Shown: in pieces, positions 215-6,047 of the stretch
How positions within the stretch are numbered: the first letter of the stretch is position 1
Layout: each line of letters starts with the position of its first letter
Assembly: GCA_002689665.1 (NCBI GenBank)
Contig: NZEN01000065.1
Span: forward strand, 2,969-9,015
Reading direction: 5' to 3'
DNA: 6,047 bases
From: Opitutia bacterium
GTDB taxonomy: Bacteria; Verrucomicrobiota; Verrucomicrobiia; Opitutales; Seribacteraceae
Notes under the pieces: model-generated
What the model was told of the DNA's origin: nothing
Databases searched by the model: none
The model's input: only the letters and a program-made list of their open reading frames with translations
Made by a program: the position numbers and the translations under genes

Positions 215-940
215 TTAAGGTCTCTCATACCAAAACCAACAGAGCTTACGAAAACGCACGGCAAAAGGGAAAAAAAAGAGCATAAGTAAGTAAAAAGTCA
301 TCTGCCAATTTCCATGCCAATCCAGTTTCCTGGAGGAGGTAATAACCGGAGGATCCGTTATAATAAAAAATTTTTGCCTGGATTTTCGCTTTAATCTCTT
401 GAGGTTCCGTACAAAAACCAGTTCTTCACCCGCGTACATGGTCTCAGGAAAACCTCCGCATGAGACAAAATCTTCTTTTCGACAAAAAATGAAGCTTCCT
501 GCCGCCAATCGAAAAGTCCTCGATAACCAATTCCACAAGGACGGAATAAATCTCCCGAGAAAAAGCTTGTTCTGATGACCATCAAACTCAACTAAGGCCC
601 CGCCTCCAAAGAAATTATCCTCAATCAGGGCATTCATCGCCTGCTCGATGTGTCGAGTAAATATGATTGTATCTGCATCGACAAAAAAAAGAAAATCACC
701 GCTAGCATAACGACCTCCAACATTTCTTGCTTTGGCAATTTGTCGAACCGGTTCATGTACCACAACTGCCCCCTTTTCTTTAGCAACCGCAGCGGTATTG
801 TCTGTTGAATTATTATCAACCACGACAACCTCCCAGTTACTAATCAGGCCTATTTTTTTTATGGCAGTAGTTATTGCCTCTATTGTATGAGGGAGGAATT
901 TCTCTTCGTTGTAAGAAGGAATGATAAAAGAACAATTCAC
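215..940 (-). CDS. Family 2 glycosyltransferase (GT-A fold), 241 aa, GTG start
   Basis: N-terminus is MNCSFIIPSYNEE (the IIPxYNE motif). Other GT2 motifs are VVVDNNSTDNT, ARNVGG and the DxD motif FFVDADT. The C-terminus has ITSSRKLDWHG followed by a hydrophobic, aromatic-rich tail (WQMTFYLLMLFFFPFAVRFRKLCWFWY). The start at 938-940 is GTG, with TAAGG immediately upstream. Confidence 0.9.
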   Translation of the reverse strand: MNCSFIIPSYNEEKFLPHTIEAITTAIKKIGLISNWEVVVVDNNSTDNTAAVAKEKGAVVVHEPVRQIAKARNVGGRYASGDFLFFVDADTIIFTRHIEQAMNALIEDNFFGGGALVEFDGHQNKLFLGRFIPSLWNWLSRTFRLAAGSFIFCRKEDFVSCGGFPETMYAGEELVFVRNLKRLKRKSRQKFFIITDPPVITSSRKLDWHGNWQMTFYLLMLFFFPFAVRFRKLCWFWYERP

Positions 941-974: not shown

Positions 975-1595
975 TTACTTATTAAATTTTTTCGCCCGGC
1001 GGCTCGCACCAAAAGAAAGTCCTGAAACCCATCCCTCCAAGCGAGCAGTGGGACGGCCTCCATATTGATCACAATCACCTTTGGCTGCCAAAGGTTTGGT
1101 TCCCTGTATATCAGCCGCGATTTGAGAAAGTGTTGGTACTTTCTCCCCACGATCTTTCATAGCTTGATGCAGAAATGCCAAGCGGTCGATTTCAAGCTGA
1201 CGAGATAGATTGGAAAGGGTTTTCCTGAACTCAGCAACACCACCTGCCCCATTGGTCTCGGGAATATCATCTACTGTTGCTTTACTGCTAGATTCCGAAG
1301 GTGATTCTTCCGCAACAGAACCTTCTTCAACTGGAGCCAACTCTTCGGAAAGAGGTTCATCGGGGGCAATATTTTCTTCGATAGGGTTATCGACCACTTC
1401 TTCAGACGAGTCAAAGTCGTCCATGGAAAACATTTCTTCACTGCTATCAATATCACCTTCGTCATCAACCGCCGGGGGGATACCAACTTCCACCGCACCT
1501 TCGGGCTCACCAGACTCTGAATCAACGGTATTTTCTTCGTCGTCGATTAACTCAGACAATTCCTCATCTGAGGGCTGCTCTTCGGAGTCGCTCAT
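975..1595 (-). CDS. Hypothetical protein, 206 aa: extremely acidic, low-complexity N-terminal half plus basic C-terminal domain; no signal peptide or TM segment
   Basis: ATG is at 1593-1595 and TAA at 975-977. Residues 1-104 contain 40 D/E and no K/R/H, and the first basic residue is K105. Residues 105-206 are net basic (about 17 K/R versus 12 D/E) and of ordinary complexity (EFRKTLSNLSRQLEIDRLAFLHQAMKDRGEKVPTLSQIAADIQGTKP...SRRAKKFNK). It is co-directional with the upstream gene and 33 nt downstream of it. A 129-aa antisense ORF also exists but looks like a compositional shadow. Confidence 0.75.
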   Translation of the reverse strand: MSDSEEQPSDEELSELIDDEENTVDSESGEPEGAVEVGIPPAVDDEGDIDSSEEMFSMDDFDSSEEVVDNPIEENIAPDEPLSEELAPVEEGSVAEESPSESSSKATVDDIPETNGAGGVAEFRKTLSNLSRQLEIDRLAFLHQAMKDRGEKVPTLSQIAADIQGTKPLAAKGDCDQYGGRPTARLEGWVSGLSFGASRRAKKFNK

Positions 1596-1628
1596 TTAGA
1601 AATGGTATTGGGGTTGGGGTAAAACAAG

Positions 1629-2504
1629 TTAGTCATTTGTAGTATTCGAATCGCCCGTGCGAATCAAGAAAAGTTTTTGATCGGGCCGTATGGAAGAGGA
1701 CGCTTTTTCGCGATAATCATGATCAAACTCAAGAAATGTAAGCTCTTTCTGAACTAAAGACGCTTTTAGATAAAAGTGCTGATCAGGTTCATTTTGTTCG
1801 TAAGCTAGATATTTAAATTCATCACGAAACCCAGACTTTATTCCATCTTCTATAAAAATTCCTGACCCTGATGGAGAAACGCTCAATACATCGATTTCTA
1901 ATTCATCACCAAAATAATGATAAGGGGGTCTTTCAATTTCACTCAAAAGACTGTCCTTTTCTTCTTGGTAGGACCTTTGTGCAACTTCCCTGCGTGTTCG
2001 TAAAGCTGACAATTCGGCATCTAGTTGGTCTCGCATCGATTTGACTTTTTTGTTTTGCTCTTCGATTTCCTTTAATTCTGACCTAGCTTTCTCTACTTCC
2101 AATCGAATCGGGTCTCCCTGCTTTCTTTTTTCCGTAGTCCTTTCAGTCTGTTCGGCAAGCTCTTTGCGAACAGATTCTAATTCTTTAATTAATTTAGTTT
2201 TTCTTGCGGAAAGATCGCTCTCCTTAAGTAAGATAATTTCTGCTTCCTCTTTAAGTTTTTCCGCGGCTGCCTGAGTCTCCTCAATTTCTAGCCTGAGTTT
2301 TCCTCTTTCACGAAACATTCCGTTAATCAAATCGGATGATTTATTTTGATCACTCTCAAGATCAAACTTCGCATCCTTTTTTAAGTTTTCTGCGTTCTTA
2401 ATTTTAGAGCTAAATGACACAAAATCTTCTTGGTTAATGAAAAATAGAACACCCGCCGCAACCAGTGAACTCCATGCGAGAATTCTAAAGATGATAGAGA
2501 TCAT
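1629..2504 (-). CDS. Hypothetical bitopic membrane protein (CC2), 291 aa from ATG 2502-2504: N-terminal TM helix, long coiled coil, beta-rich C-terminal domain
   Basis: The ORF is open to a TTG at 2538-2540, but ATG at 2502-2504 gives MISIIFRILAWSSLVAAGVLFFINQED, a short basic N-terminus then a TM helix then acidic residues, consistent with N-in/C-out. About 150 aa of K/E/L/R-rich sequence with heptad character follow (KLRLEIEETQAAAEKLKEEAEIILLKESDLSARKTKLIKELESVRKELAEQ...). The C-terminal ~95 aa are non-helical in character (ELEIDVLSVSPSGSGIFIEDGIKSGFRDEFKYLAY...YLKASLVQKELTFLEF). Stop is TAA at 1629-1631. Confidence 0.8.
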   Translation of the reverse strand: MISIIFRILAWSSLVAAGVLFFINQEDFVSFSSKIKNAENLKKDAKFDLESDQNKSSDLINGMFRERGKLRLEIEETQAAAEKLKEEAEIILLKESDLSARKTKLIKELESVRKELAEQTERTTEKRKQGDPIRLEVEKARSELKEIEEQNKKVKSMRDQLDAELSALRTRREVAQRSYQEEKDSLLSEIERPPYHYFGDELEIDVLSVSPSGSGIFIEDGIKSGFRDEFKYLAYEQNEPDQHFYLKASLVQKELTFLEFDHDYREKASSSIRPDQKLFLIRTGDSNTTND

Positions 2505-3324
2505 ATTCGCTAACAGTAAGAAGTTTGGCTGGCTTACCAAGTAGCGGGATGATGGAAGCCACGGCTTGGTTCAGTTCTGAATGAGTAATCTTAATCTTAC
2601 AAATCTCATCCCCGTTACTTCGAATGGCGAATAATTTGTCTTTAAGAACACCATCCTCCTGCCCGACGGGTAATCCCAGGAGACCATTATTAAGATCAAT
2701 CTTCATGTAAGAAAGTCGAATATATTCGCCTTTCTCCAACCAATTCCTGGAAGTTTTATCGCGAAAAAGGGAAGATGTTGTTTGATCAAAATGCTCCTTA
2801 AGTATCTTGGTAACCGCCTCGTAGTTCTCTAAAGAGTCATTTAGAACCTGAATTTCACTTTCCAAATTTTGCGTACTGTTTAATAAATTATTCTTATTTA
2901 CTTCAATCGCTGGAATTTCGGCAATATTTGCTTGGTGTTTTACCTCTAACTCATCGAATTCTTTTTTCACCTTAATTATCTGCAGCTTTACTTCTCCACT
3001 TGATTTTTGACTCTCTTCAATGGCAGTTTCTAAATCGGCAATAATTGATGCTGACTCGTCTCTGGCTTTTTGTTGGGTTGACTGCTCAACAGTTGCTTCA
3101 AATTTTTCTTCCTCCAGTTTTTGATTTTTGATTCTTTCCCGACCGTAACGCGTAGCGTGTTCCTTATTAAACTTCTCTTTTTCCTGTAATAGAGTATCTC
3201 TCTCCTTGAGAATTTGCTGAATTAACGCTTGTTCATCTTTCAATTTCGACTTCAACGAAAACATGTACCAAATGGCCACGAGTCCAAAGAGTATGGCTAG
3301 TCCATTTAAAATGAGTTTAAGCAT
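2485..3324 (-). CDS. Hypothetical bitopic membrane protein (CC1), 279 aa: N-terminal TM helix, long coiled coil, beta-rich C-terminal domain
   Basis: ATG at 3322-3324 overlaps the upstream TGA by 1 nt (TGATG). The TM helix is MLKLILNGLAILFGLVAIWYMFSL followed by KSKLKDE. About 165 aa of K/E/Q/L-rich coiled-coil-like sequence follow. The C-terminus is EYIRLSYMKIDLNNGLLGLPVGQEDGVLKDKLFAIRSNGDEICKIKITHSELNQAVASIIP. Stop is TAG at 2485-2487. Confidence 0.85.
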   Translation of the reverse strand: MLKLILNGLAILFGLVAIWYMFSLKSKLKDEQALIQQILKERDTLLQEKEKFNKEHATRYGRERIKNQKLEEEKFEATVEQSTQQKARDESASIIADLETAIEESQKSSGEVKLQIIKVKKEFDELEVKHQANIAEIPAIEVNKNNLLNSTQNLESEIQVLNDSLENYEAVTKILKEHFDQTTSSLFRDKTSRNWLEKGEYIRLSYMKIDLNNGLLGLPVGQEDGVLKDKLFAIRSNGDEICKIKITHSELNQAVASIIPLLGKPAKLLTVSEYDLYHL

Positions 3325-3914
3325 CAGGGCAAAGCAGGTAACGGAGCGAAAGGCGAGGGTTCTTCCATTGCTCCTTCAGCGGGAGCATCCAAGGGTATCC
3401 CGGGTATATCTGAACTGGGGGCAGTTGCATCAGGTAGAGTAAATTCGATAGTAGACATGGGGATAAAAGCATCCATATCGGCATTACCATCTTCCTCAGG
3501 AACTGCTTCCACCACTTGCTGAGATTGATCTGTTTCGTTTGATTCCCTAAGAGCAATCTGCTCTCTAATCTGGGAAATCCTTGCTTCTCTCTCATCTTCC
3601 CATTGGCGATCCCGTTTTTTATCGAGCTTTACTTTGTGTGTATGTAAAAGATCTTCGTCACGTCCATTCACTCCTGAGAAGAAATACATCGAATTCAATC
3701 GGCCAAATTCATCCCTAGACCACGCCCGCCCAATCGTTTGATTATCCACCACCGGTTGCATCTCCCGTGTTAGGGGATTGTATTGGTACCTAGCATTCCA
3801 TGCGTTATAAATCACTGGATAATCATTTTTTTTCGCGGTTTGGCGACAGCCCAAAATTGTTAGTCCTACAAACGATAAGAACAACCATTGGCGAATTAAT
3901 TTGGGCATAATCAT
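3324..3914 (-). CDS. Hypothetical lipoprotein, 196 aa, with acidic and proline-rich C-terminal tail
   Basis: The N-terminus MIMPKLIRQWLFLSFVGLTILGC has a basic n-region, a hydrophobic core and an I-L-G-C lipobox (SPase II type). The mature N-terminal ~70 aa are aromatic-rich (YPVIYNAWNARYQYNPL...WSRDEFGRLNSMYFFSG). A charged helix follows (KKRDRQWEDEREARISQIREQIALRE). The final 73 residues contain no K/R/H and are rich in D/E/P/A. ATG at 3912-3914 lies 2 nt after the mpg stop, and an alternative ATG is at 3906-3908. Confidence 0.85.
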   Translation of the reverse strand: MIMPKLIRQWLFLSFVGLTILGCRQTAKKNDYPVIYNAWNARYQYNPLTREMQPVVDNQTIGRAWSRDEFGRLNSMYFFSGVNGRDEDLLHTHKVKLDKKRDRQWEDEREARISQIREQIALRESNETDQSQQVVEAVPEEDGNADMDAFIPMSTIEFTLPDATAPSSDIPGIPLDAPAEGAMEEPSPFAPLPALP

Positions 3915-3916
3915 AA

Positions 3917-4453
3917 TTAAGCACCAGATTTAGCTTTTGAAAACCAAAATCTGTAGGGTTTTTGCGCCCAATATTCTCCAGCAAAATTTACACCGATACG
4001 CGGACCCGATTGAATCTGCCTTTTTAGCACATTTCCTCTTTCAAACCAAAGACCATTTGAATGGATGGCTCTTTTGCGATTTAATTTTCCATCAATTCCC
4101 AATTTTCGGGTTAGTCGTCCAGGTCCGTTGACATCCAGAGTTCCCCGCAAAAGGACGGCTGAGGGGTAACCTTCTCTTTCGCACACAATATTGAGGAGCC
4201 AATGCATTCCATAGCATAAATAAAGATAAATAACACCTGCTTCGCCATACATAACCTCATTCCTCGGGGTTTTACCCTTGGACGCATGACAAGCAAGATC
4301 CTCCTCTCCATCGTATGCTTCCGTCTCACTAATGGTCATTTTGACAACCTCGCCCTTTTTTTTACTGACACACAAGTTGGCTCCCAAAAGCTCACGGGCA
4401 ACCAGCACTACCGGTCGGTTAAAAAAGTCTTTTCCGAGCAAAGCATGGTCCAT
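3917..4453 (-). CDS. mpg: DNA-3-methyladenine glycosylase, AAG/Mpg family (3-methylpurine glycosylase), 178 aa
   Basis: The N-terminus is family-typical: FFNRPVVLVARELLGANL. The catalytic block ISETEAYDGEEDLACHASKGKTPRNEVMYGEAGVIYLYLCYGMHWLLNIV is colinear with the human AAG VETEAY...H...TPRN...YVY..YGM motif. Later motifs are AVLLRG, GPGRLTRKLGID and GPRIGV. ATG is at 4451-4453, 3 nt after the dtd stop. Confidence 0.93.
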   Translation of the reverse strand: MDHALLGKDFFNRPVVLVARELLGANLCVSKKKGEVVKMTISETEAYDGEEDLACHASKGKTPRNEVMYGEAGVIYLYLCYGMHWLLNIVCEREGYPSAVLLRGTLDVNGPGRLTRKLGIDGKLNRKRAIHSNGLWFERGNVLKRQIQSGPRIGVNFAGEYWAQKPYRFWFSKAKSGA

Positions 4454-4456
4454 TTT

Positions 4457-4909
4457 TCAATAAGACTTATTTTGGGAATCAAGCCAGATCGTCACCGGAC
4501 CGTCCTCTTTCATTTCGATATTCATGTGAGCCCCAAATTTCCCAGTCTCCAAACTTCCACCAAAAGAATTACCTAAAATCTCCAGGAACTGTTCATAGAG
4601 TGAAATCGCTAGAGATGGCGGTGCCGCTTTATTAAATGAAGGTCTGTACCCTTTTTTTAGGTTTCCACAAAGAGTAAATTGGCTGACAACGAGTATTCCC
4701 ATGTCGTCTCGAACCGGCAAGTTCATCTTGCCCTCGTTATCATCAAATATACGTAGGCCGAGGATTTTTTTACTACCCCATTCCAAATCTGTCACTTGGT
4801 CTATCTTTTCAATTCCGATGTAAACAAGCAAACCTTGATCTATCTGACCAACCACAGAACTAGCGACCCGAACACTCGCAGCATGAACTCGTCTGACAAG
4901 TAACCTCAA
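4457..4909 (-). CDS. dtd: D-aminoacyl-tRNA deacylase, 150 aa from TTG at 4907-4909
   Basis: Dtd signatures are present: SQFTLCGNLKKGYRPSFNKAAPP and the C-terminal DGPVTIWLDS. The ORF track begins at TTG 4925-4927. The downstream TTG at 4907-4909 gives the canonical Dtd N-terminus M-RLLVRRV and is preceded by GGAGAA with a 9-nt spacer. Stop is TGA at 4457-4459. Confidence 0.92.
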   Translation of the reverse strand: MRLLVRRVHAASVRVASSVVGQIDQGLLVYIGIEKIDQVTDLEWGSKKILGLRIFDDNEGKMNLPVRDDMGILVVSQFTLCGNLKKGYRPSFNKAAPPSLAISLYEQFLEILGNSFGGSLETGKFGAHMNIEMKEDGPVTIWLDSQNKSY

Positions 4910-4918
4910 AATGCTGTC

Positions 4919-4924
4919 TTCTCC
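4919..4924 (-). promoter_or_regulatory. Shine-Dalgarno sequence of dtd (GGAGAA), 9 nt upstream of the TTG start
   Basis: The minus strand reads TTCTCC-TCCTTTTG-GGAGAA-GACAGCATT-TTG. The GGAGAA element at 4919-4924 is complementary to TTCTCC at 4933-4938, so a 6-bp hairpin with an 8-nt loop is possible. Confidence 0.45.
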
Positions 4925-4951
4925 CAAAAGGAGGAGAATAAGTCGGAAAAA

Positions 4952-5923
4952 TTAATCTTCTTCTGCTACCGCATCCATTACCTCGGCCGCGGCTTTGGCC
5001 GCAAGCGGAGTCGATAGATAACGCTCACCACAACTCGCTCCAATCACTACAATTCTTTTGCCGGCCATCTCCGGTTTAGCTGCAATACGAAGAGCCGCAG
5101 TAACCGTGGCTCCAGTAGAAATACCTCCTAGGACTCCTTCTTCTAAACTTAATTGCCTCGCCATTTCAAAGGCATCCTCACTGGTTACCAATTCAACATC
5201 ATCAACAATATCCAAATTTAAGTTTTTAGGAACAAATCCCGCACCAATACCCTGAATTTTATGGGGTCCTGGTTGAACCTCTTCCCCATTTCGGGTTTGG
5301 GTGATAACTGGGCTTTCGGCCGGTTCAACAGCGATTGATTTCATATCAGGGTTTCTCTGTTTAATAACTTCCGAGACTCCCGTAATGGTCCCGCCTGTAC
5401 CTACACCCGCGACCAGACAATCAACCTGCCCTTCCATTCCAGACCAAATCTCTTCCGCTGTTGTTATACGGTGAATTTCAGGATTCGCAGGATTATTAAA
5501 TTGCTGGGGCATAAAAGCATTGTTCCCGTGTTTCTCCATCAACTGGGAGGCCTTAGAAATAGCACCTCCCATCCCTTTGGGGCCGGGAGTCAGTACAATT
5601 TCAGCACCAAGAAGACGAAGTAGCAGGCGTCTCTCCTTCGACATAGTCTCAGGCATCGTTAAAATGCATTTGTAGCCTTTGGCAGCACAAACGAAGGCCA
5701 GAGCAATCCCCGTGTTACCGGAAGTTGGCTCGATCACCACACTTTCAGGGGTAAGCGAACCGTCTTTTTCGGCAGCCTCAATCATCGCTGCCCCAATTCT
5801 GTCTTTAACACTCGCCAAAGGATTAAAGAATTCTGATTTCAAAAATATTTGTGCGTCGAGACCCTTGGTTACTTTTTGCAGCTCAACCAGGGGAGTTTTT
5901 CCTATTGATTCAATAATATTCAT
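4952..5923 (-). CDS. cysK: Cysteine synthase A / O-acetylserine sulfhydrylase (PLP-dependent), 323 aa from ATG 5921-5923
   Basis: The N-terminus is [15 protein letters not shown]. Family motifs are the PLP-lysine motif SVKDRIG, the substrate loop PTSGNTG, the PLP-phosphate loop [22 protein letters not shown] and GERYLST. A strong SD, AAGGAAGG, lies 4 nt before the internal ATG. The track's ATG at 5966-5968 would add a 15-aa extension that is not family-like. Confidence 0.95.
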
Positions 5924-5924
5924 G

Positions 5925-6047
5925 TTACCTTCCTTTACTTTTAGGACCGTAGCTTCGTATTGGAGCATTTCTGTTCACTTCAGCGTTCTTTAAACGATAA
6001 ACAATACGAGCTTTCTCCAGATCCTGAGTGCTCATTTCCATCTTTAC
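5925..6047 (-). CDS. Open frame running off the window edge: either the 3' end of an upstream gene or a 38-aa small ORF (ATG 6039-6041); product unknown
   Basis: The minus-strand frame is open from 6047 to TAA at 5925-5927. Translation is [40 protein letters not shown]. The stop sits between the cysK SD and the cysK ATG. It is too short to be in the ORF track, I recognise no family, and coding status is unproven. Confidence 0.3.
5928..5935 (-). promoter_or_regulatory. Shine-Dalgarno sequence of cysK (AAGGAAGG)
   Basis: The plus strand reads ccttcctt at 5928-5935, which is AAGGAAGG on the minus strand. It is followed by TAAC and then ATG (5923-5921). Confidence 0.6.

Follow-up and report, generated by a model that had tools for sequence, protein, structure and literature searches.

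The closest described counterparts of the genes treated here are the PilN-PilO-PilP and GspL-M subcomplexes, the scaffold protein MreC, the tether-like proteins TolA and TonB, and the ring-forming proteins TsaP and FlgT. The Pil components comprise a paralogous bitopic heterodimer and a lipoprotein bound through its disordered region, and link the inner to the outer membrane. MreC, a dimeric scaffold, has the order of parts transmembrane (TM) helix, coiled coil and beta-barrels. TolA and TonB are anchored by an N-terminal TM segment, from which a long extended spacer leads through the periplasm to a small C-terminal domain; their partners are lipoproteins (Pal) and MotA/ExbB channels. The small beta-roll or barrel domains of TsaP and FlgT build periplasmic rings around envelope machines; in TsaP, two FlgT-like beta-roll domains ring the PilQ secretin in the periplasm (bioRxiv 10.1101/2020.05.29.123786). 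Here, we analyzed a stretch of 6,047 nucleotides from an Opitutia bacterium of the Verrucomicrobiota (contig NZEN01000065.1, positions 2,969 to 9,015; hereafter the window), which carries four consecutive genes, LIPO, CC1, CC2 and ACID. CC1 and CC2 encode paralogous bitopic proteins and lie next to the gene of a lipoprotein, LIPO.

LIPO, CC1 and CC2 would resemble the PilN-PilO-PilP and GspL-M subcomplexes in the features named above for Pil, but the latter differ in fold (a ferredoxin-like core and an HR beta-sandwich) and have much shorter coils and the gene order pilMNOPQ. With MreC, CC1 and CC2 share the N-terminal TM helix, the coiled coil and a predicted small periplasmic barrel; however, MreC has two barrels instead of one and a stalk of ~60 aa instead of ~170 aa, whereas CC1 and CC2 form a paralogous pair accompanied by a lipoprotein, with no mreB, mreD or pbp2 nearby. 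The C-terminal domain of CC1 may be the same kind of small beta-roll or barrel as in TsaP and FlgT, which are, in contrast, soluble periplasmic proteins (with LysM or other N-terminal domains) devoid of a TM helix or long coiled coil, and there are no pilus or flagellar genes near the window module. Unlike the alpha/beta domains TolA-III and TonB-CTD, the C-terminal domain of CC1 is modelled as an all-beta barrel, and the MotA/ExbB-like gene located ~5 kb from the CC2 stop has two adjacent TM-coiled-coil partners of its own.

We tentatively interpret LIPO, CC1 and CC2 as a lineage-specific periplasmic scaffold or tether, a reading of their function to which we give somewhat less than an even chance. 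CC1 and CC2 would be type-II bitopic inner-membrane proteins, and their stalks of ~170 residues, matched in length and with one conserved proline each, probably pair as a heteromeric coiled coil. At its periplasmic end, the stalk would carry two small beta-barrel heads of the FlgT_C/TsaP-like kind, and LIPO would be the lipid-anchored partner, probably docking through its helix and/or its C-terminal PFAPLP motif. Together, the three proteins would bridge the periplasm in a structural role, as scaffold, spacer or tether, and would not be an enzyme. The heterodimerisation, the contact with LIPO, the span of the periplasm and the function are all what we infer from the features described below.

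CC1, CC2 and LIPO

The features of the four genes and their encoded proteins are the following (coordinates are those of the window):

3324-3914, minus strand: LIPO, lipoprotein of 196 aa with a signal peptide and lipobox Cys23, an N-terminal domain of ~90 aa, a helix and an acidic Pro-rich tail
3327-3353, minus strand: C-terminal motif SPFAPLPALP of LIPO, conserved clade-wide at the extreme C-terminus
2485-3324, minus strand: CC1, bitopic protein of 279 aa with a TM helix (residues 4-22), a helical stalk of ~170 aa and a C-terminal beta-barrel
2488-2745, minus strand: predicted C-terminal beta-barrel of CC1 (residues ~194-279), from an AlphaFold2 model, family conservation and profile search
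1629-2504, minus strand: CC2, bitopic paralogue of CC1, 291 aa, in which a TM helix (residues 5-23) leads into a helical stalk that ends in a beta domain
1650-1907, minus strand: C-terminal beta domain of CC2, probable divergent copy of the barrel, from hhalign
975-1595, minus strand: ACID, 206 aa, with hyperacidic disordered residues 1-104 and a C-terminal helical domain of ~90 aa

A first-pass annotation, made from the DNA sequence alone, had described these four minus-strand open reading frames (ORFs), and their lengths and junctions were reproduced in our analysis: the TGA stop of LIPO (3324-3326) and the ATG of CC1 (3322-3324) have one base in common (TGATG), the CC1 stop (2485-2487) lies inside CC2 with an overlap of 20 nt, and CC2 and ACID are 33 nt apart. 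The lipobox, the single N-terminal TM helices, the absence of a P-loop from all four proteins, and the stretches free of Lys and Arg, of 73 aa in LIPO (residues 124-196) and 104 aa in ACID (residues 1-104), were likewise found as described. The start of CC2 was set at the ATG at 2504 instead of the TTG at 2540 given in a mechanical ORF list, because homologues and public gene calls begin at the conserved N-terminus MI(S/L)(I/F)IFR. Homologues of the four proteins range from 25% to 98% identity with conserved lengths, and their dN/dS values (0.06-0.21, with LIPO at 0.06) are comparable to those of the neighbouring genes cysK, dtd and mpg; the four are real genes under purifying selection. In a scan for consensus promoters and terminators, sites were no commoner than in shuffled sequence; one promoter-like site was located inside CC2, and no terminator-like sites were located on the coding strand within LIPO-CC1-CC2-ACID. 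No Rfam family was detected across the window.

CC1 and CC2 contain one hydrophobic segment each (within residues 4-23; Kyte-Doolittle mean of 2.1-2.2 over 19 residues), followed by ~170 residues almost without Pro and Gly. A direct BLASTP comparison detected no similarity between the two proteins. Their family profiles, aligned using hhalign (Prob 97.6, E 3.7e-12), matched over 239 collinear columns that cover the TM helix and the stalk and extend into the C-terminal domain, and this profile comparison identifies CC1 and CC2 as distant paralogues that are maintained as a pair; the look-alike layout noted in the first-pass annotation is that of true paralogues. Invariant prolines are located at equivalent positions of the two stalks (Pro138 in CC1 and Pro132 in CC2). 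The CC1 homologues are 274-282 aa long down to 27% identity, with the exception of two sequences of 255 aa, whose chosen starts lie downstream of a public 283-aa gene call, and the CC2 homologues are ~289-304 aa long. The lengths of the stalks stay constant while identity falls to 25-30%, and stalks of fixed length with single equivalent prolines would fit an in-register heteromeric coiled coil. As read from the alignment, basic residues before the TM helix and acidic residues after it are present in most CC1 and CC2 homologues, which suggests an N-in, C-out topology, with a cytoplasmic part of 3-7 residues only.

Searches of Pfam and NCBIfam with CC1 and CC2, including every alignment member against Pfam, yielded only coiled-coil noise, and PDB sequence and profile searches with CC1 and the CC2 C-terminal domain returned coiled-coil matches or E-values >0.1. 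The matches to EzrA, SMC and other coiled-coil families (SMC, Rad50, ATG16, crescentin and others) were confined to the coil and far below cutoffs, and the PADLOC defence models also gave coiled-coil noise (JetC and LmuB, E above 0.002), with no PADLOC match for LIPO, ACID or the glycosyltransferase GT2 described below. No match to HlyD or Biotin_lipoyl was detected in Pfam or NCBIfam, the coil begins right after the TM helix, and no ABC, RND or MFS pump is adjacent to the module. TolA_C and TonB_C were not matched in the same two libraries, and the C-terminal domain is predicted to be all-beta. An SHLS-type TM motif was not seen in the TM helices of CC1 and CC2, which were read by eye and not subjected to a systematic test. 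PilN/O/P, MreC, HlyD, TolA and EzrA, the families that the first-pass annotation had named as possible refutations of its proposal, were left unmatched by the window proteins.

The N-terminus of LIPO (MIMPKLIRQWLFLSFVGLTILG-C23) has the features of a signal peptidase II substrate, that is, a signal peptide with a basic n-region, a hydrophobic core and a lipobox (ILGC) with an invariant Cys. Cys23 is conserved in 11/11 aligned homologues, whose lipoboxes vary (VGC, FGC, TGC and SAC), and together with it 13 other columns of this alignment are invariant. The N-terminal domain of ~90 aa (WNARYQY...GRxWxRDxxGR...) contains the invariant residues W39, A41, R42, Y45, R50, G62 and G71. The tail is variable, acidic and Pro-rich, with a FxPxPFLPQGI-like motif conserved in many lineages; at its end, the sequence (S)PFAPLP is nearly invariant, and P188, P191 and L192 are fully so. 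The PFAPLP sequence looks like a short docking motif. No family or PDB match was found for LIPO in Pfam (every alignment member), NCBIfam or, with the N-terminal domain, the PDB.

A second lipoprotein gene, a paralogue of LIPO, is located 4 kb downstream in the source contig (L001:14691-15326), ~2.3 kb past the end of GT2 in the window. The encoded protein of 211 aa has the lipobox FQSC and the same N-domain signature, and its acidic tail contains 3-4 DPFAPLP repeats. The adjacent gene (L001:14205-14675; 156 aa) also encodes a lipobox (LSSC).

The C-terminal barrel and its relatives

Conservation within the CC1 family is highest over the last ~85 residues. An AlphaFold2 model, built from the domain alignment, predicts a helix followed by six strands that form a small barrel (mean pLDDT 68.5). 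We used the CC1 barrel to search 1.84 billion representative proteins exhaustively with HMMER. Besides ~30 proteins of the CC1 type, other architectures carry the same barrel at E-values of 1e-4 to 1e-11: further TM-coiled-coil-barrel proteins of 280-304 aa, Opitutae proteins of 440-544 aa with the barrel at the C-terminal end, a protein that combines a signal peptide, a coiled coil and two barrels, and lipoproteins with three or four tandem barrels. The relatives that carry signal peptides or lipoboxes are exported, which implies that the domain works outside the cytoplasm and supports an N-in, C-out topology for CC1. A word-indexed homology search with the broad barrel profile returned only 5 fragments. 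All named members of the barrel clusters are annotated as "hypothetical protein". One TM-coiled-coil-barrel relative is placed between lptFG-lnt and mreB-mreC-mreD-pbp2-rodA, and another relative adjoins pgi. The Opitutae family of 440-544 aa (P0089, P0098, P0101, P0102 and P0106) has an N-terminal TM helix, a conserved region of ~200 aa, a coiled coil and the same C-terminal barrel.

Among 24 barrel representatives, FlgT_C (PF16538) was the sole recurrent Pfam signal, being sub-threshold in 8 of them (best single-domain E 6.5e-4); one whole protein (P0081) reached 27.3 bits, against a gathering score of 27, and no single stretch of it passes. The MreC barrel core weakly matched one tandem-barrel relative (E 1.5e-4 for the whole protein, with 22 bits against a cutoff of 28, and E 0.013 for a single repeat). 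When the broad barrel profile was compared to PDB sequences, TsaP was the only match (E 0.036). These similarities weakly link the CC1 barrel superfamily to the barrels of the FlgT_C/TsaP/MreC type. A distant relative (P0100) also showed an N-terminal match to T2SSM at E 0.002, below the cutoff.

The HMMER barrel profiles failed to detect the C-terminal domain of CC2. With hhalign, the domain was aligned to the barrel superfamily profile over 71 columns in register (Prob 76, E 2.3e-5), and it is probably a divergent copy of the CC1-type barrel. The first-pass annotation had called the four proteins unrecognisable; this description held in Pfam, NCBIfam, PADLOC, PDB and Foldseek comparisons, all of which were nonsignificant, but it no longer applies to the beta domain of CC1, as a member of a wider barrel superfamily.

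Distribution and conserved gene order

The module is flanked in the window by the following genes:

4952-5968, minus strand: cysK, cysteine synthase, 338 aa as listed (ATG at 5968)
4457-4927, minus strand: dtd, D-aminoacyl-tRNA deacylase
3917-4453, minus strand: mpg, methylpurine-DNA glycosylase
215-940, minus strand: GT2, family 2 glycosyltransferase (Pfam Glycos_transf_2), 241 aa from a GTG at 940

All eight listed genes of the window are thus on the minus strand and form one continuous string, in which further gaps are of 3 nt (dtd-mpg), 2 nt (mpg-LIPO) and 34 nt (ACID-GT2). The 338-aa ORF of cysK is probably 15 codons too long (window 5923-5968): for most of the more distant homologues the alignment begins at residue 16, gene calls in relatives give 323 aa, and an ORF of the full listed length would run 44 nt into the upstream infA-like gene of the source contig.

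CC1 relatives in species-representative genomes were found only in metagenome-assembled genomes (MAGs) of marine Opitutales, Opitutia or Puniceicoccaceae-like members of the Verrucomicrobiota, and exact copies of CC1 occur in Tara Oceans and other marine metagenome contigs. Among 5.8 billion proteins, CC1 is represented by only 25 clusters at 90% identity. The profile of the ACID C-terminal domain matched 29 clusters and this family is limited to the same clade as CC1; the two taxon-labelled clusters of the 29 are an Opitutae MAG and a partial sequence labelled Rhodobacteraceae. No relatives were found in viral contigs. The four families have an equally narrow taxonomic range and always co-occur.

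The gene order was compared in ~100 loci, of which 13 are from genomes; the others are from several metagenome contigs and from a further set of 80 metagenome loci. Wherever the contig extends, the order cysK-dtd-(mpg)-LIPO-CC1-CC2-ACID-GT2 is invariant. Since mpg is absent in several lineages (e.g. L012 and L017-L023), the module is independent of this gene; three more distant lineages (L030, L112 and L113) retain dtd-mpg upstream. The most divergent locus, L030, has 54% GC, compared to 43% in the window, and its CC1 and CC2 are 31% and 25% identical to those of the window. In this locus, a sugar epimerase gene is inserted between mpg and LIPO and the genes past GT2 differ, with LIPO-CC1-CC2-ACID-GT2 kept. 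The CC1/CC2 overlap of ~17-26 nt is preserved in all lineages compared, the LIPO/CC1 junction is mostly overlapping or of at most ~40 nt, and the CC2-ACID gap grows to ~140-220 nt in distant lineages. Rates of change differ strongly along the segment: where identity is ~85% for cysK, it is ~52% for dtd, ~48% for ACID and GT2, and 27-34% for LIPO, CC1 and CC2, and such fast sequence change is commonly seen in envelope or structural proteins. We conclude that LIPO, CC1 and CC2 make up a robust unit, with ACID and GT2 as constant companions and with the boundary of the four genes arbitrary on both sides.

It is important to mention how these data bear on the module proposed in the first-pass annotation. 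LIPO-CC1-CC2 is a real and deeply conserved unit, but a self-contained system of four genes is not supported, because dtd and GT2 flank it in all loci that extend far enough; independence from mpg and dtd, a check suggested in the same annotation, was found for mpg and not for dtd. Co-translation, which had been taken as a sign of shared function, is weak evidence of it, because short junctions are general in this compact contig and genome.

ACID has a net charge of -35 and contains neither a signal peptide nor a TM helix. Its acidic region free of Lys and Arg includes the conserved islands VExGIPP and SSEExFSxDDF(D/E), and the C-terminal ~90 residues (mean identity 74% across the clade) end in an invariant GWxSGLSFGxxRRAKKFxK. 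AlphaFold2 predicts five helices in this domain (pLDDT 72.6), for which Foldseek found nothing below E 2.6. Neither the C-terminal domain nor the full-length protein matched the PDB, and no family member matched Pfam. The sole PDB sequence similarity of ACID, to the GYF domain of CD2BP2 (E 2.2), was rejected because the AlphaFold2 model is all-helical; no GYF structure was present in the Foldseek output and no Pfam GYF match was detected. In PopZ, an alphaproteobacterial protein, a short conserved motif at the N-terminus is followed by a long disordered region that is acidic and Pro/Glu-rich, and the C-terminal domain is small and helical. ACID is alike in architecture to such acidic hubs, a likeness that we regard as a lead, but its C-terminal domain is unrelated in sequence and has a basic RRAKKF tail; the lack of Pfam matches among ACID family members includes PopZ, although the presence of a PopZ model in the library was not confirmed. 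In two long-read-derived contigs (L024 and L025), many genes of the region are fragmented, probably by assembly frameshifts, which accounts for several of the short ACID "proteins" found in databases.

The link of ACID to LIPO-CC1-CC2 is positional only: CC1 and CC2 expose 3-7 residues to the cytoplasm and ACID has no signal peptide, so that no handle on the pair is evident, and the possible cytoplasmic component that the first-pass annotation had suggested for the complex was not supported, as nothing physically ties ACID to CC1 and CC2. GT2 matches Pfam Glycos_transf_2 at E 2e-24, and its best NCBIfam match (TIGR04283) scores 98 bits against a cutoff of 182. Wherever a locus extends this far, as the GC-rich L030 does, the gene adjoins ACID, and it possibly belongs to the same unit as LIPO-CC1-CC2-ACID. 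In public gene calls, GT2 starts from an internal ATG (202 aa); homologues align over all 241 residues. An oxidoreductase gene of the sugar-modifying type (GFO/IDH) follows GT2.

The proposed scaffold and its alternatives

The periplasmic scaffold or tether is supported by the verified architecture and junctions, the charges around the TM helices, the collinear CC1/CC2 paralogy, the constant stalk lengths with their equivalent prolines, the modelled CC1 barrel and its occurrence in exported and in other TM-coiled-coil proteins, and the purifying selection on all four genes. It is also supported by the adjacency of LIPO-CC1-CC2 in every locus examined, including the lineage of 54% GC, and by the PFAPLP tail that LIPO shares with the second neighbouring lipoprotein. 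Additionally, through the weak kinship of the barrel to FlgT_C, TsaP and MreC the proteins come close to an established type of periplasmic scaffold, and LIPO, CC1, CC2 and ACID are probably envelope-associated. The observation made in the first-pass annotation is confirmed and its interpretation partly supported: a complex that extends from an inner-membrane anchor into the periplasm fits the extracytoplasmic barrel relatives, with the contact to LIPO being conjectural, and a role without any enzymatic component could be a mistaken reading in case GT2, which is always adjacent, is part of the unit.

Several results weigh against the scaffold. The Foldseek search of the PDB with the CC1 barrel model gave no significant match (best E 0.03), the top matches being N-terminal beta-barrels of V1/F1-ATPase subunits and FliI; FlgT, TsaP and MreC structures were not among the top 50, and the confidence of the model is moderate. 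The CC1 barrel was not matched by the FlgT_C profile, CC1 lacks any Pfam match, and none of the links to FlgT_C, TsaP and MreC reaches a family threshold. The topology of CC1 and CC2 is derived from hydropathy, flanking charge and analogy. As for the gene order, the majority of intergenic gaps in the 20.8-kb source contig are <50 nt, so that tight spacing is general, no arrangement free of dtd or GT2 was found in the ~100 loci, and, with every carrier in a single clade, inheritance of the genome structure could explain part of the conservation in order.

The alternative that we regard as doubtful but the best of those considered is that there is no single system, and that lineage-specific envelope and cytoplasmic genes with unrelated or loosely related functions are adjacent because a compact genome has passed on the whole cysK-dtd-...-GT2 segment without change. 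The invariant order extends to at least eight or nine genes and not only the four, short gaps are found contig-wide, ACID is cytoplasmic without a visible handle on CC1 and CC2, and the CC2-ACID gap widens in distant lineages, as described above. However, LIPO/CC1 and CC1/CC2 are overlapping or a few nt apart in most lineages despite the loss of mpg and the insertion of the epimerase gene, the CC1/CC2 paralogues are kept as a pair, and the four families share their narrow range and co-occurrence.

It is unlikely that LIPO, CC1 and CC2 form an alignment subcomplex of the PilN/PilO/PilP kind, in which the pair and a lipoprotein with a disordered linker would join an inner-membrane platform to the outer-membrane part of a trans-envelope machine (pilus, secretion or motility) encoded elsewhere. 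The logic of two paralogous bitopic coiled-coil proteins and a lipoprotein with a disordered region is the same, the candidate structural kin nearest to the barrel, TsaP and FlgT, serve pilus and flagellar machines, and a MotA/ExbB-like channel gene with two TM-coiled-coil proteins lies 4-6 kb downstream. Yet the profiles of PilN (PF05137), PilO (PF04350, with T2SSM), PilP (PF04351) and T2SS L/M were unmatched by LIPO, CC1 and CC2 up to E 1, the C-terminal domain is modelled as a barrel and not as a ferredoxin-like fold, the stalks are ~four times longer than those of PilN and PilO, the gene order is different, and no pilM, pilQ, ATPase or secretin gene was found within 10 kb on either side.

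Decidedly speculative, and a little less likely still, is an Opitutales-specific trans-envelope apparatus of LIPO, CC1, CC2, their neighbours ACID and GT2, and possibly the second PFAPLP lipoprotein, in which a heteromeric coiled-coil "ruler" with FlgT-like barrel heads would read PFAPLP docking motifs of lipoproteins and set or sense envelope spacing, coupled in the cytoplasm to a PopZ-like ACID hub and GT2.

We consider improbable a morphogenetic scaffold of the MreC type, in which the role that MreC has for PBP2, the organisation of peptidoglycan enzymes (synthases or hydrolases), would fall to the TM-coiled-coil-barrel proteins. The order of parts in CC1 and CC2 is that of MreC, one tandem-barrel relative weakly matches the MreC core, as given above, and a distant TM-coiled-coil-barrel relative lies directly upstream of mreBCD-pbp2-rodA; the latter is not a replacement of MreC, because a genuine MreC coexists. 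The Pfam MreC model (PF04085) missed CC1, CC2 and their 11-member alignments up to E 0.5-1, MreC structures were absent from the top Foldseek matches, and neither mreB, mreD, pbp2 nor other elongasome or peptidoglycan-synthesis genes were found within 10 kb on either side.

Just as improbable is a glycoconjugate assembly or export unit, in which GT2 and the GFO/IDH oxidoreductase would make a lipid-linked sugar at the cytoplasmic face, ACID would be an adaptor, and the product would be guided or anchored in the periplasm by LIPO-CC1-CC2, in loose analogy to a polysaccharide co-polymerase with its outer-membrane lipoprotein: GT2 is the invariant downstream neighbour even where other flanks change, a sugar epimerase gene lies just upstream of LIPO in L030 and the oxidoreductase follows GT2, but no Wzz, Wzc, Wza, flippase or polymerase match was found in Pfam or NCBIfam, GT2 is small and of the non-processive type with its best NCBIfam match below the cutoff, and CC1 and CC2 have one TM helix instead of the two of co-polymerases.

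If the scaffold formed by CC1, CC2 and LIPO is real, it would represent a new way to build a periplasm-spanning structure, from a paralogous coiled-coil pair with FlgT/MreC-like barrels, and lipoproteins with a short proline motif would be part of the same construction. The analysis would also define a barrel-domain superfamily that occurs in several architectures and currently lacks annotation. The advance is modest, the theme being a TM-coiled-coil-barrel scaffold restricted to one marine clade, and at present it amounts to a hypothesis-generating annotation and not to a functional discovery. Marine Opitutales are abundant, mostly uncultured bacteria with small genomes, and genes kept in such genomes under purifying selection likely matter to the cell.

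Two further gene sets were observed in the source contig. A MotA/ExbB-family protein of 354 aa is encoded 4-6 kb downstream, followed by two overlapping genes for proteins of 328 and 361 aa (L001:15803-18957), each with an ExbD/TolR-like N-terminal TM segment and a coiled coil; the 328-aa protein also shows a weak match to SHD1 (SH3-like). This arrangement is conserved in relatives (L007), and the neighbourhood may thereby include another, separate envelope system that is energised. On the upstream side of the window region, a protein of 799 aa with TIR (ThsB_TIR/TIR_2) and TPR domains is encoded (L001:3284-5683), which is kept in the neighbourhood across relatives (L008 and L024) and could be a defence or signalling protein.

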